The notes under the pieces were generated by a model. It made no database searches. It saw only the letters and a program-made list of their open reading frames with translations, and was not told the origin of the DNA. Shown one piece after another: positions 33,403-42,869 of a DNA stretch of 64,000 nucleotides. The position numbers and the translations under genes are program-made. This DNA comes from a virus (lineage: Duplodnaviria; Caudoviricetes), in the IMG/VR virus record IMGVR_UViG_3300031669_000010, positions 1 through 64,000 of that record. The stretch is one strand, 5' to 3'. The first letter of the stretch is position 1. Each line of letters opens with the position of its first letter.

Positions 33403-33783
33403 ATGAAAATAAAAAATGATTTCGTTACAAATAGTTCTTCCTCATCATTTGTATTTGAAGCATCGGAAAAGATTTTGCGAAAAGATATCGAGAAACATAT
33501 GAGATTCTATTACGCTGAATGCTTCCGGTGCTTCACTAACAAAAAGAGTTTAACAGAGTTTACAGAAGCAGGCTACGGAGACTGGGTTTCAAAGGCAAGG
33601 GGTGAACCTGCTACATTTTGGAATATGGATCCATCCTGTTACAGAGAAGCATGTAAGATTTTAAATTGTGGTATGTTTGTCATCTATGCTTCTGTTGACA
33701 GGAACGATATGGACAGAGTTGAGAAGTTCCAGGATCTTGTGGAAGATCGTGGTGGAAGAATAAGAACCAGGAGTGGAGATTAA
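33403..33783 (+). CDS. MKxKxDFVTNSS-family protein 5
   Basis: Starts MKIKNDFVTNSSSSSFVF. Confidence 0.75.
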   Translation: MKIKNDFVTNSSSSSFVFEASEKILRKDIEKHMRFYYAECFRCFTNKKSLTEFTEAGYGDWVSKARGEPATFWNMDPSCYREACKILNCGMFVIYASVDRNDMDRVEKFQDLVEDRGGRIRTRSGD

Positions 33784-33784
33784 T

Positions 33785-34831
33785 ATGAGTCAAGTTCGAA
33801 TCGTAAATTGGCTGCTCACAAGAAGGTGTAATCTAAAATGTGAGTATTGTGCCATTGTTAAAAACTATAAGGGTAAACCGTCTAGTTATCCGGATATGAG
33901 ACATTATATCAAACATGAAATGCCAACCAATGTAGTCATTAATGCATTAAAGGGATTCAAGATTCATAATCCGAATGTATTTCATATATTCTATGGTGGC
34001 GAGCCATTGCTAAGACCTGATCTTGCAGACATCATAAATTATTGTAATGAAAATGAAATCTACTATACAGTAATCAGCAACAATACTTCAGGCATTCAAG
34101 ATCGTATAAGAATGCTATTTGACAAAGTTGAATACATTGAGGGGTTCACAAGTTCTGTTGATCCAATCTTCAATGAAATTGGTGCTAAAGAAGACAGAGT
34201 CAAAAAGAGTATTGAAGGTCTGAGGCGATTAAAAGAAATTCAAGCTGCTGGAAAAGTGAAAGATGTTGTTGCTGAAATAACAGTTATGAAACACAATCAA
34301 GATCTTTTATACAGACTCATCCGAGAGTTGAGTGATGAGGAAATATATAGTGATATTACATTCGTTGATATTGCAAAAACTAAGTATTATGATTTTTCAA
34401 ATGTCTTGGATGAAACATTTTTAGTTAGACCAACATTTGAACTAGCAGAAGAGTTGATCGACATTATAACTGATAATCGTTTATTGGTTCATATGAAGGA
34501 CATTCTAATACCTAAGATGTTCGATACACTTCCATCGAATTTTGACTGTGAGATTGAAAAGGGTTTGCATAACTTGACAATTGATGCTGATGGTTCAATC
34601 AGATTGTGTTTAAGAATTAGGGGTATTGCATCTCCTTCATACAATGTGACTGAACTATTTGATCCAACATATCCTGAACTTATTTCTGCGGATGTGTATA
34701 GTGCAATAAAAGGTGATAAGAAGCACTACTGTTCGTTGTGTAACCATTCCTGTTTAATGATGAGTCAGTATTTTGATACAACTAATGAGGAAGTGGATAC
34801 ACTAATACATTCCGATAAACGGAGGGAGTAA
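33785..34831 (+). CDS. Radical SAM enzyme with C-terminal Cys cluster (SPASM/twitch-like)
   Basis: CNLKCEYC (CxxxCxxC), GGEPLL; C-terminal C...CLRI...CSLCNHSC. Confidence 0.88.
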   Translation: MSQVRIVNWLLTRRCNLKCEYCAIVKNYKGKPSSYPDMRHYIKHEMPTNVVINALKGFKIHNPNVFHIFYGGEPLLRPDLADIINYCNENEIYYTVISNNTSGIQDRIRMLFDKVEYIEGFTSSVDPIFNEIGAKEDRVKKSIEGLRRLKEIQAAGKVKDVVAEITVMKHNQDLLYRLIRELSDEEIYSDITFVDIAKTKYYDFSNVLDETFLVRPTFELAEELIDIITDNRLLVHMKDILIPKMFDTLPSNFDCEIEKGLHNLTIDADGSIRLCLRIRGIASPSYNVTELFDPTYPELISADVYSAIKGDKKHYCSLCNHSCLMMSQYFDTTNEEVDTLIHSDKRRE

Positions 34832-34834
34832 ACT

Positions 34835-35176
34835 ATGGCAGACGAACCTACAAAAGATTCTGTAGATAGTGACATAATTGTTAGCGCAATAATGTTCTGG
34901 AAAAAGGTATACGAAGAGAAAGAAGTCATTATCAAATTTATAAAAAAAGATAAGACTAATCGAATCATGAGATGTACCTTAGATTTCAAAAAGATTCCTG
35001 TGAAAGATCAACCCAAAAGTGTCAACATTGAAGTCATTCTAAGATTAATTCAGAAAAACAAAATCATGCATGTTTATGATCTTGATAAAAAAGCATGGCG
35101 TTCGGTTCCGTTCGATAGGGTTGAATATATGGATACAAAGAATCGACGATATTTCACAAAGAAACAACCAGTATAA
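34835..35176 (+). CDS. SH3/WYL_2-like small beta-barrel protein
   Basis: FIKKDKTNRIMRCTL...VYDLDKKAWRSVPFDRV pattern typical of this phage family (recognised by eye). Confidence 0.55.
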   Translation: MADEPTKDSVDSDIIVSAIMFWKKVYEEKEVIIKFIKKDKTNRIMRCTLDFKKIPVKDQPKSVNIEVILRLIQKNKIMHVYDLDKKAWRSVPFDRVEYMDTKNRRYFTKKQPV

Positions 35177-35188
35177 AGGAGAATACAA

Positions 35189-35569
35189 GTGGGAATCTTA
35201 AGAGAAATTCTCAAGGAAATCAAGTCCGACGATAACCTTGAGAAAGTAAGAATACTATGTGATCAAATAATCAAAGAGGAAAAAGATAATGTTGTACATT
35301 ATCAAATACTTCCGAAAGGTCCAAATCTATTTCTTGTATTAGAAGTTCCTGGAAGAATTAAAGATGAGATTGCCTTTCTTGCGCTTGAACGTGAGAGCGA
35401 AGATCTTTGGTTATGTGTATTATTTATTACAACTATGAAGGAGTATGCATTAAGAGAAAAGAATCCTCCTTCAATAAAGAGGCAAAGGGTCTGGGAGATC
35501 AATGATCATAGACCAGAAAAGGTCTTAACTGAATATGCAAAACGTTACAAATTTCTACGAGGTGAATAA
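35189..35569 (+). CDS. Hypothetical protein
   Basis: GTG start with AAGGAG RBS; abuts the next gene. Confidence 0.6.
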   Translation: MGILREILKEIKSDDNLEKVRILCDQIIKEEKDNVVHYQILPKGPNLFLVLEVPGRIKDEIAFLALERESEDLWLCVLFITTMKEYALREKNPPSIKRQRVWEINDHRPEKVLTEYAKRYKFLRGE

Positions 35570-38167
35570 ATGTTAAATGGGTATCTAACAGATGAAATCC
35601 GAATTAATTCTAAATATGCACATGTATATAGATCTGAATATCCCGATAACCTTGAATCAGATTCTATTCCAATTGTTCATAGACATTCTTTGTTGACAGA
35701 AGATTATCTGCGACGCATGACAAGTGGAATTTCTGGAAATGGAATGAGTATTCTTCCTCCAAATTGCAGATACATTGAAAATGTAAAACAAGGTAATATT
35801 GTGATAATTGAAGAACCTCCTGCATTTAGAACAATTTCAATCTATATGAGCTTTACTAAGGAAGTTGAAAGATTGAAGGCGGAAGGAAAACTTGCTGAGT
35901 ATGGTTTTGATGAAGATTTTGCAAGAGAGTCAATGGCCAAAAGATTCACTCTAGCATTTCCATATGTCATATTTATTTTATACTTCACAAGATACAATGA
36001 ATTGTCCTGTGGCCAAGCATATCTGAGAGTAGCTAGACTTTCAGGCCTATCTGATTACCTTCTAAAAATACCACTCACAAACATTGCAGAGAGTCAGTAT
36101 ATCTGTTTTGGTTCTAAGGCTGGTGGTTCGGCAGAAACATTAAATGCAGGTGTTGAAAAAGTAATCGACGTATTTTGGGGAGCTGAGTTTAACACCGACT
36201 ATACATATAACTATACTGCATATAGAGATATTGCCGGCGTAAATTCTTATATGGAATGGCAAGCATTGTCAGCAAGTAATCCCATGTTCATTTATAATGT
36301 TGATTGGATGAAGATTCCAATGAATATTGGGCAGGCCCTTGATGAAGTAAAACGCCATTATAAACTGTCAAGTTCGTCTGATATACAATATAAAAATCTT
36401 TCCAGTATGTTTTCAGTACCTCTGGATTCAGGAAAGGATGAGGCTCCAACTAAGAGATCTCGAAAGAAATATAGATTGTTTTATGATGTTGCCCAAGGTA
36501 TATTTCTTGATGAGAATTACTATGTCCATGTGGGTGATTCGTTCCAAAACAAAAGTGGGACGATGTTTTTCATCAACTCCTTTATTAGTTTTGCAGACAG
36601 TGGTGATGTTAAATATGTCCGCGTTGAAAGAGAAGACGGAAGACTTATCGTATTAAAATTTACCAAATCAGTCTCACACTATTTAAAAGAGCGAACTAAA
36701 GCTCTTCGTTATGAAGCAGAAGGAATTCTGAAAAATGGTGTTGTCGTTAAAGAGAATGATATTATCAAACTGACAAATGCAATTGGAGATGCGGTATATA
36801 AGAAAGTCACTTTCATTCGTAAATCCCAAGAGGGATTCCACGAAGGACGGTTTGGTGATGGATTTTACATTCTAGAAAACACCGAAGGTGAAGTATATGA
36901 TGTTACAAATCCAGAATATCGAGGTATTAAACTGAAGAAAAATACAGATTATCTGTACATGAAAACTGAAAATGAGGTACCATTCAACCAAGGGTGTATT
37001 GTAAATTTCACAGGCATAGAAGCAGATAATCGTGGAAGATTAAATATCGACATGACTCACAAAGACAATGATTTTAGAGGGAGTCCGTACAAAATTCCAT
37101 TGAATCAGTCAAACTCAAACATACGACTGTATGAAATGGATCAAGTTAAACCTCTACCACCTGTTTTCAGACTTGGTCGAAAGTTATTAGTCAACAGAAA
37201 GAATGATAGAAATCTGTATGAAAATTCTGTCTTCGGAACTCCGTATGGTATTATATACGATTCTGGATATGGTAATATGGATAAAGCGAATCCCGATGAA
37301 ATAAAGAAATACATGCTTGGGGAAGATAAATTCCAAGTTAAAAGTTTCGATTTAGACATTGAGTTTAATATAGGAGATAAGGTTGTCGTGGCTGATTTTG
37401 AAAATCCGATCAATATGCTTTCAGTGAAAACCATTCAGGGGTTTAAGTTCACAGAAGGAGTTGGAGATATTCATTTCATATTAGCAGATAAACAGGGCAA
37501 CCTACAACAAGAAGAATATGTGAAAGGAAGATATGGAACAATTCATACCGGCAGAATTAGAAAGATTTCAAATGTTTTTGGTGAACTGACAGCTGGAACA
37601 AAGATCAAATCTAATATAGCTGGATTCCCACACTTCGCAAAAAAAGACACAAATATTATCATTGGTTTTCTGACTGATACAGGAGGACCAGATCCATTGG
37701 TTCTATGCTCCAATTGCTGTACAATGTGGTATAGAGATGTGGTGGAATGCTTTAAACATATTCCAATAAAGTCAGCTGAATGGGCGAAAACAGCACATTC
37801 TCCAATTGATGTAGCTAAGATTAAATATCAACCAGGTGACATTCTTATAGGAACTGGTAGTAGCGATTATAGATCCAATACCGGATGGTTGTTATTTAAG
37901 GTCACTGGCTCAAACAGTATTAAAGCGATGGATTTTAATTACTATAATGCATGGCCAGATTATTTCACTCTGGATAGATATATTACGACTAATTCAAAAT
38001 TTGATTGTATCCCTAACCCACGAATCGGTCCCAAGGCTCAAAGTGAGATGGAAATAATTCGATCATGGCCGAATATGCATGGTTATTATTTTTCATGTGA
38101 TAAAGCCAAATTCCGATTCCTAAACGATGAGAGGAGTATGGTGAATGTTCAAAGTAGTTCTGAATGA
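35570..38167 (+). CDS. Large protein with N-terminal prokaryotic E2-like (Prok-E2 family D-like) domain
   Basis: IIEEPPAFRTI, LAFPYVIF, PLTNIAESQYICFG, FWGAEFN resemble PRTRC-B/Prok-E2_D; directly upstream of JAB, E1 and Ubl genes. Confidence 0.6.
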   Translation: MLNGYLTDEIRINSKYAHVYRSEYPDNLESDSIPIVHRHSLLTEDYLRRMTSGISGNGMSILPPNCRYIENVKQGNIVIIEEPPAFRTISIYMSFTKEVERLKAEGKLAEYGFDEDFARESMAKRFTLAFPYVIFILYFTRYNELSCGQAYLRVARLSGLSDYLLKIPLTNIAESQYICFGSKAGGSAETLNAGVEKVIDVFWGAEFNTDYTYNYTAYRDIAGVNSYMEWQALSASNPMFIYNVDWMKIPMNIGQALDEVKRHYKLSSSSDIQYKNLSSMFSVPLDSGKDEAPTKRSRKKYRLFYDVAQGIFLDENYYVHVGDSFQNKSGTMFFINSFISFADSGDVKYVRVEREDGRLIVLKFTKSVSHYLKERTKALRYEAEGILKNGVVVKENDIIKLTNAIGDAVYKKVTFIRKSQEGFHEGRFGDGFYILENTEGEVYDVTNPEYRGIKLKKNTDYLYMKTENEVPFNQGCIVNFTGIEADNRGRLNIDMTHKDNDFRGSPYKIPLNQSNSNIRLYEMDQVKPLPPVFRLGRKLLVNRKNDRNLYENSVFGTPYGIIYDSGYGNMDKANPDEIKKYMLGEDKFQVKSFDLDIEFNIGDKVVVADFENPINMLSVKTIQGFKFTEGVGDIHFILADKQGNLQQEEYVKGRYGTIHTGRIRKISNVFGELTAGTKIKSNIAGFPHFAKKDTNIIIGFLTDTGGPDPLVLCSNCCTMWYRDVVECFKHIPIKSAEWAKTAHSPIDVAKIKYQPGDILIGTGSSDYRSNTGWLLFKVTGSNSIKAMDFNYYNAWPDYFTLDRYITTNSKFDCIPNPRIGPKAQSEMEIIRSWPNMHGYYFSCDKAKFRFLNDERSMVNVQSSSE

Positions 38168-39731
38168 TGGGCAGAATGAAATGCCCGAAGACGATATTTA
38201 TTATATTATTGGAAAGGAGGGTGTGTACCTCAAGAAGAAACTTGGGGTGATGGATAGTCTTGCACCTGTAAAAAATATCTCCATTTTGCAAAGTGTAATT
38301 TCATCTGCACAAATGCATATAACACCCATACCAGGCATGTGGATTGCCAAAGTTATGAACTTCTTCCGCGAAGTTTATAAAGAGTATAGATCCGAAGCCA
38401 TTGTTCTGTTGTTTTACAATGAGGAAACAGGACATCATAAAATTGTTCCCCCTCATCAAAAAGTTGCAGGAGCATCATGTGACTATGATAAAGGGATCAC
38501 TATAGAAGGTTATACAATGATCGGAACCATTCATAGTCACGGAAATATGTCAGCATTTCATTCCGGTACTGATGATAAAGACGAAGAACATTTTGATGGT
38601 CTTCATATGACATTTGGTGATTTGGACGAAGACTATCCAAGTATATCAGCATCAATTGTGTCAAATGGTTTCCGGCAAATGATTGAACCAGAACAATATA
38701 TTAAAGATTTGGTTTGTATGGCCGAGACAAATTCTGTTGATAATAAAGCTGTTAGAACGGTTTATAAATGGGTTGACGGGGTGCTTACTGAAGATGAAGA
38801 AGCTGCTCCAAAATATACCTATCAATGGAAAAAGTTTGACAGGCGATATGATGTTACGTGCTCAGACCGTGAGAGAATCTTTAACAAGAAGTGGATGCGC
38901 ATGGTCGAAAAGGGTACCTATACTTACAAGAGTTACAATGCTGGTTCCGGTTACAGAAGTCTATATGGATGGACTGGTCATGGATGGGGTCAAAATTATG
39001 ATCGTGGTGCATGGTCCCAAGCTGGTCGACTCCTACCACCCGGAGCACAAACACAAACGAAAGGTGTACCTCCTCAGAACGTTGGCGTTACAGTTAAACC
39101 TCTTGAATTTCCCCCGCATACACAAGATGGAGACTTTATGCCTTGCGTGACATGTACTCATAGAATGTGCAAACTTACCTCTGAAATTGAAGAGGATGAT
39201 TTTGAAGAAATGTATTATTGTGAGAAGTGTGGAGAGATTGTTAAGGAGGACGCAGATTTGGTCATTATATGTTCAACATGTAAAACCGATGATCATCTTA
39301 TTCTCTTAGATAAAGATGATCTATTGACCAATCAATATATACCAGGTGATGAATACGACCACATGTTTGACAGGGATTCTGCTGGAGTTATCAGACAAGA
39401 AGAAACCCTTTATGTTAAATGCAAAGAATGTGGTAATGGTTTCCATATGTTTGAGGACGATTCTATATGTCCTTTCTGTTATGCCCAAGTAAACGAGAGT
39501 TATTCCTCGGAAGATGCCTTAGAGGTTCAAACCGAAAACGATTCAGGGGCCTTTCTCAATCAAGAAACAGAAGACGCAAACAATGCAGCATTATTGGAAG
39601 CGGCGAATCGAGAAGATGAAACGCTCGAAAGAATACCCGAACCAGGATCAAATGTAATACCGATACCTGAAAAGAAAGACACCGGTTTAGCAGCAATGTT
39701 CCGGAAAGTCTTCTCAAAGGAAAGAATATAA
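38145..39731 (+). CDS. JAB/JAMM (MPN+) metallopeptidase with C-terminal zinc ribbons
   Basis: E...IGTIHSHGNMSAFHSGTD fits H-S-H-x7-S-x2-D; CxxC pairs CEKC/CSTC and CKEC/CPFC. Confidence 0.85.
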   Translation: MFKVVLNDGQNEMPEDDIYYIIGKEGVYLKKKLGVMDSLAPVKNISILQSVISSAQMHITPIPGMWIAKVMNFFREVYKEYRSEAIVLLFYNEETGHHKIVPPHQKVAGASCDYDKGITIEGYTMIGTIHSHGNMSAFHSGTDDKDEEHFDGLHMTFGDLDEDYPSISASIVSNGFRQMIEPEQYIKDLVCMAETNSVDNKAVRTVYKWVDGVLTEDEEAAPKYTYQWKKFDRRYDVTCSDRERIFNKKWMRMVEKGTYTYKSYNAGSGYRSLYGWTGHGWGQNYDRGAWSQAGRLLPPGAQTQTKGVPPQNVGVTVKPLEFPPHTQDGDFMPCVTCTHRMCKLTSEIEEDDFEEMYYCEKCGEIVKEDADLVIICSTCKTDDHLILLDKDDLLTNQYIPGDEYDHMFDRDSAGVIRQEETLYVKCKECGNGFHMFEDDSICPFCYAQVNESYSSEDALEVQTENDSGAFLNQETEDANNAALLEAANREDETLERIPEPGSNVIPIPEKKDTGLAAMFRKVFSKERI

Positions 39732-40423
39732 TGAGCGATACTACTGAGCTTTATATTTCTGTTATTGGTCTTGGTGGGGTTGGAACTATTTTAATCGAAA
39801 GATTATGTAGATTCCTAAACTATTCAAAAGATCTTACCGCAGAATTCCTTCTGGTGGACGGAGATGAGTATGAGCAGAAGAATTATGAAAGGCAGGAGTT
39901 TTCAAGAATTGGAAACAAAGCCGATATAAAAGCCACCGAGTTGGAAATGAAGTTTAAAGATTTGCGGTTCGATACGCTCGAAGCCTTCATAGACGAATCA
40001 AATATTGAGAACGTTATTAAAGAAGGTGATATTGTTTTTCTATGTGTTGATAATCACAAATCCAGAATGATTGTTTCAAATTACTGTAAAAAATTACAAG
40101 ATGTTATTTTAATTTCTGGCGGGAATGATTTCACAGATGGTAATGTACAGATTTACGTCCGGAAGGCGGGGGCCGATTTAACTCCGGATCTATGTGCATA
40201 TCATCCTGAAATTGCAAATCCCGATGATAGGTTACCGCAAGAAATGAGCTGTCAAGAGCTCGCAAACTCAGATCCTCAGCTATACTTTGCTAATTTGGGG
40301 GTCGCTACTCTTATGTGTTGGGCTTTCTACAACGCTGTTGTTAGAGGGCAATATGAACGGTCTGAGGTTTACTTCGATCTTACAAGTATGACCACAGATG
40401 CAAAAATCCGAATGGTGAAATAA
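39731..40423 (+). CDS. ThiF/E1-like adenylating enzyme
   Basis: GLGGVG, VDGDEYEQKNYERQ, CVDNHKSR, GGN, C-terminal SCQE...PQLYFAN. Confidence 0.88.
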   Translation: MSDTTELYISVIGLGGVGTILIERLCRFLNYSKDLTAEFLLVDGDEYEQKNYERQEFSRIGNKADIKATELEMKFKDLRFDTLEAFIDESNIENVIKEGDIVFLCVDNHKSRMIVSNYCKKLQDVILISGGNDFTDGNVQIYVRKAGADLTPDLCAYHPEIANPDDRLPQEMSCQELANSDPQLYFANLGVATLMCWAFYNAVVRGQYERSEVYFDLTSMTTDAKIRMVK

Positions 40424-40449
40424 AATAGAGAAGTAAGGAGATTAAAATC

Positions 40450-40914
40450 ATGGCTAGAAGTTTTTCGAGAGAAGCACTGGAAGAAAAGACGTCCAAGGAA
40501 CTTAAAAGAATGTGTGTTGATGAGCTCAATATCGTCGGCGTCACCAAGAAACCCAAGGACGATGTTATCAACGCCATTATGGCACAGTACGGCGCGGCAT
40601 CTAAACCCGCTGCAATCGCCAAAGATACGAAGCTGACCGGTATCAAATTCACGGGTCAAAGTACCCTGACGAAACCGGATTCTCCGTTTGGCTCCCGTAC
40701 AACCACAACCATTCATGTTTCCTGTGGTGCATCCTCAGGTAACTTCCCAGTAGCCGGCAAAACAGTGAAAGACGTTGGGGACTTCCTTCGTGAGGTTCTG
40801 AACGTGGATCGTCTGTCCACCGGACTGGTCAATGGTAAAGAAGTCGGCGCAGACTATATTCTGAGCTCCGGCGACAACCTGGAATTCCTGAAACCAGCAG
40901 GAAAAAAGGGTTAA
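40450..40914 (+). CDS. Ubiquitin-like (beta-grasp) protein with N-terminal Rho-N/HeH-like domain
   Basis: C-terminal GKTVKDV...LNV...LVNGKEV...YILSSGDNLEFLKPAGKKG* ends in Gly; N-terminal LEEKTSKELKRMC.ELNIVGVTKKPKDDVINAI. Confidence 0.75.
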   Translation: MARSFSREALEEKTSKELKRMCVDELNIVGVTKKPKDDVINAIMAQYGAASKPAAIAKDTKLTGIKFTGQSTLTKPDSPFGSRTTTTIHVSCGASSGNFPVAGKTVKDVGDFLREVLNVDRLSTGLVNGKEVGADYILSSGDNLEFLKPAGKKG

Positions 40915-40923
40915 AATAAATGC

Positions 40924-40947
40924 GGAGGGAGCCTTCGGGTTCCCTCC
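40924..40947 (+). terminator. cUUCGg hairpin after the Ubl gene
   Basis: GGAGGGAGCC-TTCG-GGTTCCCTCC. Confidence 0.6.
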
Positions 40948-40967
40948 CATACAAAGGACTGAAAAAT

Positions 40968-41567
40968 ATGAATCCAAATACACAAAGAATTCTTGCTGAG
41001 AATAGCATTGATAAAATTTCTTTTTATTTCATCAATAGCCCCATTGTAAATAATGCATTTACAGTGTGTATTCTCATAAACTCTTTTGAGAAGAGAATCG
41101 AAGCAAGAGGAGTTTCTATTTGTTCTCTCATGGATACTTTTTCCAAATCCGAAGGTAAGAATAAAGCGTTTGGACGTGCAGTTAAAGCTATCGCAAGGAG
41201 AGAAAATAACTGGAAGATTAATGGGTCCGGTCGAGATGATGAATTTGTTCCACGGTCGTTCAAAGTGAAAACAGAAAAAGATGATGATGGTTTTAGGGGC
41301 GGAGTTGCACCCGAACTTCAACGAATAAATCCACACCTGCCAATCAGAGTTCAAGATAGTGGTAGGTTTAAAAAATATTCATTTGAAATTCCTGCAAGTT
41401 ATCCCATGAGACTGGCAAACTCTTTATTCAAATATAAGTCACACTACCGACCTGTTCCAGTTGGAGATGAAGAGAACGAGCTTCTTAAGAGGCTAACTAT
41501 ATTTACAGAACCAATCGAAAATGAAAGTTCCAATTTACTTGTTTCAACATTTGGAATCGAAGATTAA
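40968..41567 (+). CDS. Hypothetical phage protein
   Basis: Start moved to ATG 40968; GVSICS..DTFSKSEGKNKAFGRA motif recalled from small phage proteins. Confidence 0.65.
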   Translation: MNPNTQRILAENSIDKISFYFINSPIVNNAFTVCILINSFEKRIEARGVSICSLMDTFSKSEGKNKAFGRAVKAIARRENNWKINGSGRDDEFVPRSFKVKTEKDDDGFRGGVAPELQRINPHLPIRVQDSGRFKKYSFEIPASYPMRLANSLFKYKSHYRPVPVGDEENELLKRLTIFTEPIENESSNLLVSTFGIED

Positions 41568-41581
41568 GGTTCTTAGTTCGA

Positions 41582-41616
41582 GGGGGGTTTCTAACAACCC
41601 CCCACATTTATTTTTT
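41582..41616 (+). terminator. Intrinsic terminator
   Basis: GGGGGGTT / AACCCCCC stem followed by a T-rich tract. Confidence 0.65.
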
Positions 41617-41634: not shown

Positions 41635-42495
41635 GTGGTGTACAAAAATGTAGTAATAATTGGTCTCGGTACACTTGGTGGGTATATCGCAGAGGCTGTA
41701 ACCAATTTAGACAGCACCGAAAAAATAGTAATAATAGACCACGATATAGTTGAACAGAAGAATTTGAAAAATTCCATATACAGGCAAATTGATATAGGAA
41801 GTCCTAAGGTAGAAGCTTTGAAAGATATTCTTCAACATGAACAACCAGATGTTGAAGTATGGGCGTTTCATGCAAAGTATGAAGAAGGCAAGACAAAAAT
41901 TCCAAAAGAAGATTTGGTTATTGATTGCAGGGACTTTACCTATAATAGACAAAGTGAAATTGATGCAAGATTCTATATATCATCAAGATATTTAATGGCT
42001 GATTTTAGAAAGAATATTAAATACAAACAGCAGCAAGTAGGAAAATACATTTTACAATTATCAAGAAATGATTTGAGACATGCTGCGTCAATTGGTTCTA
42101 TGTTAATTCATAGTAATACAATTGAATCTCTAATAAAAAGCCAATCTGTTCAAAAATATGAACTCGATTATGTCAAACACACGGACAATTGTAGATATGA
42201 CGTTGTGTATGAAAATGTAGTGGGGGAAGAAAAGTTTGTTAATCTCCCCGATAAGATCGTCCCAATTATGGAGATGAATCAAAAAGGGGATTTAACCATC
42301 TTTCTCGGAAGTAGAGTATATCCAATTTCTGAATCAGTGATACCAATTAAAAGTTTGGTAAACAGTTCTGATGTGATCTCGAGTCTTGCATCTGTAGTTG
42401 CTTGCCAAACAGATTTCAATAATTTTGTGATATCTATATTCAAGGAAAATAGTAATGTTTTTATTGAACTTATACCTGATACTGGAGCTGCGTGA
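41635..42495 (+). CDS. Second ThiF/E1-like protein (divergent)
   Basis: IIGLGTLGG, IIDHDIVEQKNL, PKVEALK, VIDCRD. Confidence 0.75.
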   Translation: MVYKNVVIIGLGTLGGYIAEAVTNLDSTEKIVIIDHDIVEQKNLKNSIYRQIDIGSPKVEALKDILQHEQPDVEVWAFHAKYEEGKTKIPKEDLVIDCRDFTYNRQSEIDARFYISSRYLMADFRKNIKYKQQQVGKYILQLSRNDLRHAASIGSMLIHSNTIESLIKSQSVQKYELDYVKHTDNCRYDVVYENVVGEEKFVNLPDKIVPIMEMNQKGDLTIFLGSRVYPISESVIPIKSLVNSSDVISSLASVVACQTDFNNFVISIFKENSNVFIELIPDTGAA

Positions 42496-42869
42496 TGGAG
42501 ATAATTAATCATGAGATAACAGACTATATCAGACCAAGGAAGTTGATTTTTAAAAATGAGATATTTACAATCACCAAATTAGCACAGAAGTTTGAAATTG
42601 CTAGTTATGTGATAAAAACTGTCAATGAAAAAATTGACATGGTTATATTAAACAATCCACATCCAAATGCAATACCAAGGAGTGGTGAGTTTTGTATACC
42701 AAATAACTTACGAAAATATGAGTTGACTCAAAACTCTAAAAATATGATTACTAGCATGTTATCATGCTTCAACTTAGACGATTGTTACTTCACACCTTGG
42801 GATGAAATAGAATATGAAAAACAAGAGGTGATAGGAGCATATGGAAGAAAATCAGAAGATAACCAATGA
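42495..42869 (+). CDS. E2 (UBC-fold)-like small protein
   Basis: HPNAIPRSGEFC matches the E2 HPN-x7/8-C active-site pattern; overlaps the ThiF-like gene. Confidence 0.55.
   Translation: MEIINHEITDYIRPRKLIFKNEIFTITKLAQKFEIASYVIKTVNEKIDMVILNNPHPNAIPRSGEFCIPNNLRKYELTQNSKNMITSMLSCFNLDDCYFTPWDEIEYEKQEVIGAYGRKSEDNQ

Follow-up and report, generated by a model that had tools for sequence, protein, structure and literature searches.

A probable phage-encoded ubiquitin-like conjugation cassette in a clade of uncultured jumbo phages

Do phages encode complete ubiquitin-like conjugation pathways of their own, and if so, what might they use them for? To our knowledge, the only experimental demonstrations of conjugation of ubiquitin-like proteins (Ubls) in prokaryotes concern the defence of hosts against phages, by the type II CBASS, Bil and Bub systems. 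The question is raised by positions 35,570 to 40,947 of a 64,000-nucleotide stretch of phage DNA, positions 1 to 64,000 of IMG/VR record IMGVR_UViG_3300031669_000010 (the whole of which we call the window). Here an earlier reading of the sequence (the original prediction) had proposed an operon of four genes for an E2-like protein, a JAMM peptidase of the JAB family, a ThiF-type E1 and a Ubl. Our analysis suggests that these genes probably do encode a phage-borne Ubl conjugation pathway, distantly related to the Prok-E2_D/Prok-JAB/ThiF (PRTRC-like) cassettes.

The four-gene cassette and its predicted products

The features of the cassette are as follows.

35570..38167, + strand: E2-like protein (E2L), 865 aa, with an E2/UBC-like domain and barrels
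36104-36106, + strand: codon of the candidate catalytic Cys179 of E2L, invariant in 81 sequences
38145..39731, + strand: JAMM/JAB peptidase, 528 aa, Prok-JAB match above cut-off
39731..40423, + strand: ThiF-type E1, 230 aa, ThiF match of 62.4 bits
40450..40914, + strand: Ubl, 154 aa, with a Rho_N/SAP head, a linker and a beta-grasp domain
40924..40947, + strand: UUCG hairpin with a 10-bp G+C-rich stem, directly 3' of the Ubl stop codon

The four genes are consecutive and tightly packed, as first described: all are + strand open reading frames (ORFs), E2L and JAB overlapping by 23 nt and JAB and E1 by 1 nt, with a gap of 26 nt between E1 and Ubl. The transcription unit probably begins upstream of 35570, and the genes at 33773..35569 are probably co-transcribed with the cassette. 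The hairpin noted at its end is present; GGAGGGAGCC-UUCG-GGUUCCCUCC has a predicted folding energy of -24.1 kcal/mol (z -4.15 versus shuffles), and most related loci have a comparable G-rich hairpin after the stop codon of the Ubl gene. The window hairpin has no U tract and so is not a textbook intrinsic terminator; its probable role is to define where the unit ends on the 3' side or to stabilise the RNA.

The Pfam family ThiF (PF00899) matches the 230-residue E1 with 62.4 bits against a cut-off of 28.1. The protein is a bare adenylation domain, with no rhodanese domain in a Pfam scan, no CxxC zinc site on reading of the sequence, and no ubiquitin-fold domain. Residues G13, G15, G18, D43, N51, R54, Q55, K63, D107 and C174 are invariant in 31 E1 sequences. 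Comparison of the family profile with the PDB recovered MoeB, UBA5, Uba4, ThiF, TcdA, MccB and BubCD, and the nucleotide-binding residues could be aligned to those of MoeB (1jw9). The C-terminal SC motif of the original prediction was found as S173-C174 (S-C-x-E); C174 lies beyond the PDB alignments, which stop at residue 145, and we take it to be the equivalent of MoeB C187 or ThiF C184.

The peptidase matches Prok-JAB (PF14464) with 27.7 bits (cut-off 25), and the HSH-x7-S-x2-D motif on which its identification had rested, H130-S-H132-x7-S140-x2-D143, is kept in 35 of 35 relatives. The JAB domain occupies residues of about 20-190 of the 528. The C-terminal region is poorly conserved and in the window protein contains five CxxC pairs; among relatives this part is about 110 to 440 residues long and has one to nine CxxC pairs, and beyond a first single CxxC these are mostly paired 15–18 residues apart in the manner of zinc ribbons.

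The Ubl has two domains joined by a low-complexity linker. In a VIA-wide structural search, which is independent of Foldseek and is the source of all fold alignments with Z values given here, residues 5-51 align to Rho N-terminal/SAP-like helical domains (Z 6.2), and the Pfam family Rho_N matches the window protein and is found in 22 of 31 Ubl relatives (best E 7.6e-12). The domain at about 85-154 came out as beta-grasp. Its residues 91-153 align to MoaD (Z 5.4), ThiS, TGS, SAMP1, ubiquitin, ISG15 and Fubi; beta-grasp proteins make up about 40 of the 50 structures listed for the Ubl and likewise dominate the Foldseek top list. A PDB sequence-profile search with the Ubl gave no informative match, and Pfam across the 31 relatives reports TGS in 28, ThiS in 19 and Ub-Mut7C in 11. 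The fold of this C-terminal domain, on which the original prediction had staked its reading of the gene at 40450, is thus backed by the structural lists and by Pfam matches across the family.

The ...AGKKG tail of the Ubl was also confirmed. The end ...LEFLKPAG(K/R)KG is invariant, as is G154 in 31 sequences; the protein terminates in Gly in 19 of these and in Gly-Cys in the other 12. All the tail codons vary synonymously, and selection therefore acts on the protein. A terminal glycine, whether free or covered by one residue that can be cut off, is typical of conjugated modifiers, and since 12 of the 31 relatives have the Gly-Cys form, the JAB peptidase is probably also a maturase. In two loci (L020:12083-12388 and L033:6435-6797) the Ubl ORF stops short of the conserved tail, which in L020 continues in a different frame; a frameshift or an assembly error may account for these shortened ORFs. 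A distant relative (L040:11354-12067) encodes a 237-aa Ubl with two tandem Rho_N/SAP-like heads ahead of the beta-grasp domain.

An E1 and a beta-grasp protein of these kinds could also serve sulfur transfer, with the ThiF protein adenylating a ThiS/MoaD-like carrier that becomes a thiocarboxylate and is used for thiolation of nucleic acid or of a small molecule, perhaps together with the radical SAM/SPASM enzyme encoded nearby, while the JAMM peptidase only trims. We consider this unlikely. The closest folds to the Ubl beta-grasp domain are indeed those of MoaD, ThiS, TGS and SAMP, the best NCBIfam and PDB relatives of the E1 include ThiF, MoeB and Uba4, a SAP head could bring a carrier to DNA or RNA, and the QbsCDE and CysO/Mec systems are known cases in which a JAMM enzyme trims carriers that bear additional residues at the C-terminus. 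The radical SAM/SPASM gene, four genes upstream of the Ubl gene, is conserved as well, although its product matches no specific family. However, known sulfur carriers end in GG and this Ubl ends in KKG, the E1 has no rhodanese domain in the Pfam scan, and no rhodanese, cysteine desulfurase or sulfur-insertion enzyme is found among the genes scanned (neighbouring loci were not scanned for them). A sulfur relay, moreover, needs no E2, whereas every locus has, conserved alongside the other genes, an E2-like protein whose Asn and Cys are invariant.

That protein, E2L, gives a full-length AlphaFold2 (AF2) model with a mean predicted local distance difference test score (pLDDT) of 90.6. Pfam Prok-E2_D (PF14460) matches its residues 164-235 with 15.2 bits in the full-length protein and 17.5 bits in the N-terminal domain (cut-off 25). 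It is the only recurrent Pfam family, appearing in 27 of 30 family N-domains at E<0.1 (best E 8.2e-7), and precomputed PF14460 assignments exist for 13 E2L homologues. Residues 58-250, taken from the full-length model, align to nine E2 or ubiquitin E2 variant (UEV) chains with Z of 4.7–5.1 and root-mean-square deviations of 3.1–5.2 Å, over 99–126 residues in eight cases and 79 in one; these are Ubc13/Mms2, UbcH7, UBE2E1, E2S, UbcH5c, Ubc8, Pex4p, the Tsg101 UEV and 2a7l. All of 81 sequences have N171 and C179, as part of P-x-x-N-I-x5-I-C-F-G. In the canonical E2 motif, HPN-x7-C, the Asn lies about eight residues ahead of the catalytic Cys, and the spacing of N171 and C179 presumably reproduces this; the domain has no conserved His. 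The description of this gene as an E2-family-D-like domain with some 600 extra residues is thus supported by the Prok-E2_D match, albeit a weak one in the window protein, by its recurrence in the family and by the fold alignments.

Several other searches added little. Foldseek with the full-length E2L model returned multi-barrel proteins only (Spt5, SETDB1) with very low template modelling (TM) scores, a PDB sequence-profile search with the E2L N-domain gave no match, PHROGs contained nothing for E2L, JAB or Ubl, and a few uncharacterised phage proteins were matched in BFVD.

The remainder of E2L is built from barrels. Residues 382-447 align to BAH domains (Z about 6), and 594-667, 669-740 and 751-818 align to Tudor/KOW/SH3-like barrels including those of CarD, NusG/Spt5 KOW and the UvrD C-terminal domain (Z about 5); the overall Z range is 5–6.3. 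These Z values are middling, and likeness of fold does not reveal a function. We note that the barrel region at 37706-38080 (residues 713-837) contains an invariant C713-S714-N715, together with H743 (99% conserved), H837 (97%) and the partly conserved C716, C717 and C813; C713-S-N, H743 and H837 could constitute an additional active site or bind a metal.

Conservation of the cassette in jumbo phages

The G+C content of the window is 33–40%, and almost every long ORF is on the + strand. Its genes include those for a large terminase (TerL), a helicase, topoisomerase II subunits, two sets of large RNA polymerase beta/beta'-like proteins, and an SbcC-like subunit beside which a metallophosphoesterase (SbcD-like by position) is encoded. 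The terminase is at most 32% identical to that of any GenBank phage, and the cassette region has no nucleotide match in 50,697 phage records; GenBank phages searched by nucleotide comparison and by tblastn with the whole region, E2L and Ubl as queries likewise gave nothing. Because of this gene content, the divergence of the terminase and the absence of nucleotide matches, the window is assigned to a divergent, uncultured jumbo phage. The closest relatives' contigs reach 223–248 kb with an estimated completeness of 71–79%. Metagenome DNA runs containing the stretch are from soil, marine sediment and aquatic samples only, and no RNA run is listed among them. Contigs of several relatives (P0034, P0114, L042 and L044) were binned in archaeal metagenome-assembled genomes (MAGs), two of Thermoplasmatales, one of Thorarchaeota (a 255-kb contig) and one of Pacearchaeota; the likely cause is that phage contigs of low GC were mis-binned.

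The E2L gene was found in 35 distinct viral contigs of IMG/VR (41 locus rows, six contigs being represented by duplicate views). The gene order is the same in all 35: SbcC, a 126-aa gene, radical SAM, a WYL_2-like gene, a 126-aa gene, E2-like, JAB, E1 and Ubl, followed by a variable gene, a second ThiF, a 125-aa protein (p125), small ORFs and RNA polymerase. Across these loci identity falls to 26% for the E2-like protein and is 51–81% for the E1, 41–82% for the Ubl and 56–81% for an RNA polymerase subunit, such that E1 and Ubl are conserved to the same degree as RNA polymerase. That these four genes recur in unchanged order in 35 viral contigs, down to 26% E2-like identity, argues that the cassette is not a chance assembly. 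In a survey of prokaryotes (one genome per species, 185,579 species) it was seen on three short MAG contigs only. From the synteny, the polymerase-like conservation and the near-absence from prokaryote species genomes, we infer that the cassette belongs to a phage clade and is a core block of its genomes, not a sporadic island. The proposal that the phage owns the pathway is thereby supported, as the cassette is confined to viral contigs and the window is from a jumbo phage, and the survey of synteny in other phages that had been called for came out positive.

Metagenomes contain at least 142 full-length E2L homologues of 34–60% identity. A profile of the N-terminal 290 residues matched 2259 representative proteins (clusters at 50% identity), 265 of them at E<=1e-30. 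Among the best 150 of these matches nearly all are 820–985 aa long, and therefore share the whole E2L architecture; the others are shorter and probably partial.

The module lies between an SbcCD/topoisomerase/helicase block and an RNA polymerase operon. Because it sits among such genes and is equally conserved, a role in the phage's own replication or transcription programme seems more likely than an accessory one. This setting bears on another possible use of the genes, in which the JAB and/or the E1, E2 and Ubl strip or out-compete host Ubl immunity (Bil, type II CBASS, Bub), or tag defence proteins. Anti-defence genes are usually accessory, variable and fast-evolving, whereas every related contig has this module as a syntenic core block, placed among replication and transcription genes and evolving slowly like RNA polymerase; in addition, no PADLOC model for Bil or CBASS matches JAB, E2L or Ubl. 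We therefore regard counter-defence as improbable, even though bacterial Ubl pathways are antiphage systems under the control of JAB peptidases (PMC11601596; PMC10097602), and the window JAB, E1 and E2 are homologous to cassettes of mobile elements (PMC1779556).

The pattern of conservation also speaks to whether the cassette could be a degenerate remnant, its proteins retaining the folds but serving in structure or regulation and making no covalent Ubl conjugates. The E2 and Ubl scores of the window, being under the Pfam cut-offs, would fit such decay. However, the ATP site and Cys174 of the E1, the JAMM motif, Asn171 and Cys179 of E2L and the terminal Gly are invariant down to 26–50% identity, and invariance of all the catalytic residues is not expected of an inactive remnant, which makes this explanation very unlikely.

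Cultured phages carry a related cassette. A tblastn search with the E1 identified ThiF genes in three Bacillus jumbo phages, vB_BauM_KLEB27-3 (OM634661), Edson (PV796108) and vB_BceM_WH1 (LC597490), and the E2_D gene of KLEB27-3 is common to Edson and vB_BceM_WH1; the records annotate these cassette genes as hypothetical or by domain. In KLEB27-3, gp199 to gp194 comprise Prok_Ub (93.9 bits), two unknown proteins, Prok-E2_D, Prok-JAB (annotated PRTRC_A) and ThiF. Comparison with the window E2, JAB and E1 gives blastp E values of 1.3e-4, 6e-12 and 6.5e-19 and hidden Markov model (HMM) E values of 9e-10, 2e-15 and 4e-29, respectively, the alignment of the gp196 E2 spanning the N...C stretch of the window protein. 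The KLEB27-3 Ubl gene, gp199 (L045:712-1419), consists of four head-to-tail copies of 57–58 aa, each ending FEVKAGVKG and then Met, with seven extra residues after the last copy. Its sequence is that of a polyubiquitin-like precursor in a cultured phage, and such head-to-tail poly-Ubl is a hallmark of modifiers and not of sulfur carriers.

The Bacillus phage cassettes resemble that of the window in the order E2_D, JAB, ThiF, in being carried on jumbo phage genomes, and, for KLEB27-3, in the likeness of KAGVKG to KPAGKKG. They differ in that the E2 is a stand-alone protein of 255 aa whereas that of the window is fused to barrels, and in that the Ubl of KLEB27-3 is a four-repeat poly-Prok_Ub without a SAP head, encoded upstream of the enzymes whereas the window Ubl gene is downstream. 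Between Ubl and enzymes KLEB27-3 also encodes a 559-aa protein of unknown family (gp197), to which the E2L tail has no detectable similarity.

Flanking genes and a second ThiF gene

The genes and elements that flank the cassette are as follows.

33773-34831, + strand: radical SAM/SPASM protein (Pfam, NCBIfam), syntenic in all loci
34835-35176, + strand: WYL_2-like small protein (Sm/SH3), syntenic in all loci
35189-35569, + strand: 126-aa protein, packed against the E2L gene, syntenic in all loci
41582-41603: second G-rich hairpin with a T-rich tail, bracketing the variable gene together with the first hairpin
41635..42495, + strand: second ThiF protein (ThiF2), 286 aa, ThiF match of 62.6 bits, in essentially all loci
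42492..42869, + strand: p125, 125 aa, overlapping the ThiF2 stop codon, with an invariant H57-P58-N59-x8-C68

The best matches of the radical SAM/SPASM enzyme are viperin-like and NirJ-like, far under cut-offs. The 126-aa protein upstream of E2L has an invariant LERE motif and ends in ...LRGE or ...LRG. We considered this end as a third Ubl-like tail and rejected it: the codons (AGA/CGA GGT GAA TAA TG) double as the Shine-Dalgarno sequence and start overlap of E2L and have few synonymous changes, and the tail is probably conserved as a constraint at the RNA level.

Downstream, the variable gene (40920-41603 region) was found by BLAST in 16 of the 41 locus rows. Its annotated start falls inside the first hairpin, which makes Met17 at 40968 the probable true one. 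ThiF2 keeps GxGxxG, D35, N43, K58 and D97 but has a degenerate Arg/Gln motif, NLKNS in place of the NLxRQ of E1s. In nearly all of 33 relatives it ends ...EL(IP/LE)ETGAA with synonymously varying codons (42478-42492 in the window), and this end could act as a degron, as a docking motif or as a tail resembling a substrate; hhalign found no relation between the C-terminal half of ThiF2 and the Ubl profile. Its constant co-occurrence with the four genes suggests that ThiF2 may be part of the pathway.

The gene for p125 co-occurs with the cassette and with ThiF2, to which it is translationally coupled. By its motif p125 may be a minimal E2; there was no Pfam match in 28 members, no PDB profile match and no hhalign link to the E2L domain, and the Atlas model (pLDDT 0.44) is too poor for use. 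Complex prediction for ThiF2 with p125 gave an ipSAE of 0.00 in both runs, which had no controls, and hence provides no answer and is not used as evidence.

Relation to known systems and a proposed mechanism

All four domain assignments (E2, JAB, E1 and Ubl) survived tests at the level of the family and of the fold, that of the E2 with a window score under the Pfam cut-off and a middling Z. The closest precedents are the five types of bacterial operon of Iyer et al. 2006 (PMC1779556), the E1-like genes reported in the Nidhogg viruses of Asgard archaea (10.1101/2021.07.29.454249), the Bil and Bub pathways (PMC11601596) and the TAPI-JAB pair of phages lambda and T1. Our full-text literature searches recovered no paper describing a complete phage-encoded E1/E2/JAB/Ubl set.

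The PRTRC cassettes of plasmids and integrative and conjugative elements, a system defined by computation only (TIGR03735, TIGR03736; Prok-E2_D, Prok-JAB, Prok_Ub), share with the window separate E2_D-like, JAB and short ThiF proteins and a small Ubl. The relation to them that had been suggested is real but distant. The best NCBIfam match of the JAB is TIGR03735 PRTRC_A (41.6 bits, cut-off 101.8), the E1 matches TIGR03736 PRTRC_ThiF over its full length (38.6 bits, cut-off 144.75), and across models TIGR03734-TIGR03741 these two proteins score far under the curated cut-offs while E2L and Ubl are matched by none. ParB_N (PF02195) was not found in the contigs of two relatives (223 and 248 kb; 71–79% complete). 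The window differs further from PRTRC in the fusion of the E2 to some 600 barrel residues, the Rho_N/SAP head of the Ubl, the zinc ribbons of the JAB and the jumbo phage carrier.

Bil also consists of Ubl, E2, JAB and E1 as four separate proteins, as does the window cassette, and conjugates its Ubl to a protein target (summarised in PMC11601596). The E1 of Bil, BilD, is large and comprises IAD, AAD and CYS domains, whereas the window E1 is a 230-aa MoeB/UBA5-like protein that the PADLOC BilD model matches at E 0.041 only, and Bil is a host-encoded defence whereas the window module is a phage core block. Bub systems (6E) have a short E1 of the homodimer type, JAB processing of a Ubl precursor and varied Ubl N-terminal domains (PMC11601596). 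The window likewise has a short E1, a JAB and a Ubl with an N-terminal domain, and BubCD is among the PDB matches of its E1. However, Bub uses Ser/oxyester chemistry, the DUF6527 protease BubE and Ubl-E2 or E2-E1 fusions, while the window has an invariant Cys in both E1 and E2, separate genes and no BubE-like gene that we could see.

Two further comparisons are less close. The eukaryotic UBE2O-type E2/E3 hybrids combine, like E2L, an E2 domain and SH3-like barrels with a possible role in substrate binding in one chain, but this is an analogy only: the domain order differs, there is no sequence relationship, and the fungal Ube2O structure 9quf stands at rank 48 in the E2L Foldseek list (E 1.7e-3, TM below 0.1). 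TAPI (a Ubl) and TAPK (JAB plus NlpC) of phages lambda and T1 likewise place a phage beta-grasp protein with a C-terminal Gly beside a JAB (PMC1779556), but they lack E1 and E2 and belong to tail assembly, unlike the window module with its replication and transcription neighbours.

Several points weigh against a conjugation pathway. The Prok-E2_D score of the window E2L (15–17.5 bits) and the matches of its Ubl (TGS at 17.9 bits, ThiS and Ub-Mut7C) are all under Pfam cut-offs; the fold matches of both proteins have a middling Z (~5), and the Ubl model has a pLDDT of 70, with beta-grasp strands 1-2 below 50. The Ubl ends in a single Gly after two Lys and not in Gly-Gly. No E3, target or lysine acceptor emerged from the analysis, the PADLOC Bil and CBASS component models do not match E2L, JAB or Ubl, and our full-text searches found no functional study of PRTRC-type cassettes. 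Lastly, sulfur-carrier pathways too include ThiS/MoaD-like proteins that are trimmed by JAMM peptidases, and a radical SAM gene lies just upstream of the cassette.

For the conjugation pathway, which we still consider the probable function, we propose the following course. In those relatives whose Ubl ends in Gly-Cys, the JAMM peptidase would trim the extra residue and expose the Gly; in the window phage it would mainly reverse conjugation, because the Gly of the Ubl is already terminal. Its zinc ribbons may bind Ubl or substrates. A dimer of the 230-aa E1 would adenylate Gly154, the Ubl would then probably form a thioester on Cys174, and it would be handed to Cys179 of the E2-like domain, with Asn171 eight residues ahead. 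The BAH/Tudor/KOW/SH3-like barrels would choose the target, such that E2L would act as an E2/E3 hybrid, and the Ubl would be joined to target lysines. Since the Ubl carries a nucleic-acid-binding Rho_N/SAP head on a flexible linker, tagging might give the target a handle for DNA or RNA, or might focus tagging on proteins bound to nucleic acid. A further, E1/E2-like tier may be made up of ThiF2 and p125.

A more elaborate version of conjugation would be a eukaryote-like modifier system of two tiers that acts on the phage's own replication and transcription machinery, in which the E2/E3 hybrid places the SAP-headed Ubl on nucleic-acid-bound proteins such as RNA polymerase, in the manner of a phage SUMO, and ThiF2 and p125 supply a second E1/E2 tier or a heteromeric E1. 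We hold this to be rather doubtful, although the Tudor/KOW/BAH-like barrels of the E2L model appear to resemble modules that bind RNA polymerase and chromatin. If it is true, tagging would reprogramme or localise its targets during infection.

The complete set of E1, E2, peptidase and Ubl is a conserved core block in a large and diverse clade of soil and sediment jumbo phages, with the E2 architecture common to at least 265 clusters at 50% identity. The set is unusual in its Ubl with a nucleic-acid-binding head, its E2 fused to reader-like barrels and its peptidase with zinc ribbons, and the Bacillus phage cassettes make the question of the pathway testable at the bench. The distribution of these genes suggests that the pathway has a wide distribution among uncultured jumbo phages and occurs in cultured ones too, and that phages as well as bacteria run pathways of this kind. 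If the cassette is active, protein tagging would be a viral tool in the bacterial world too, as it is for eukaryotic viruses.

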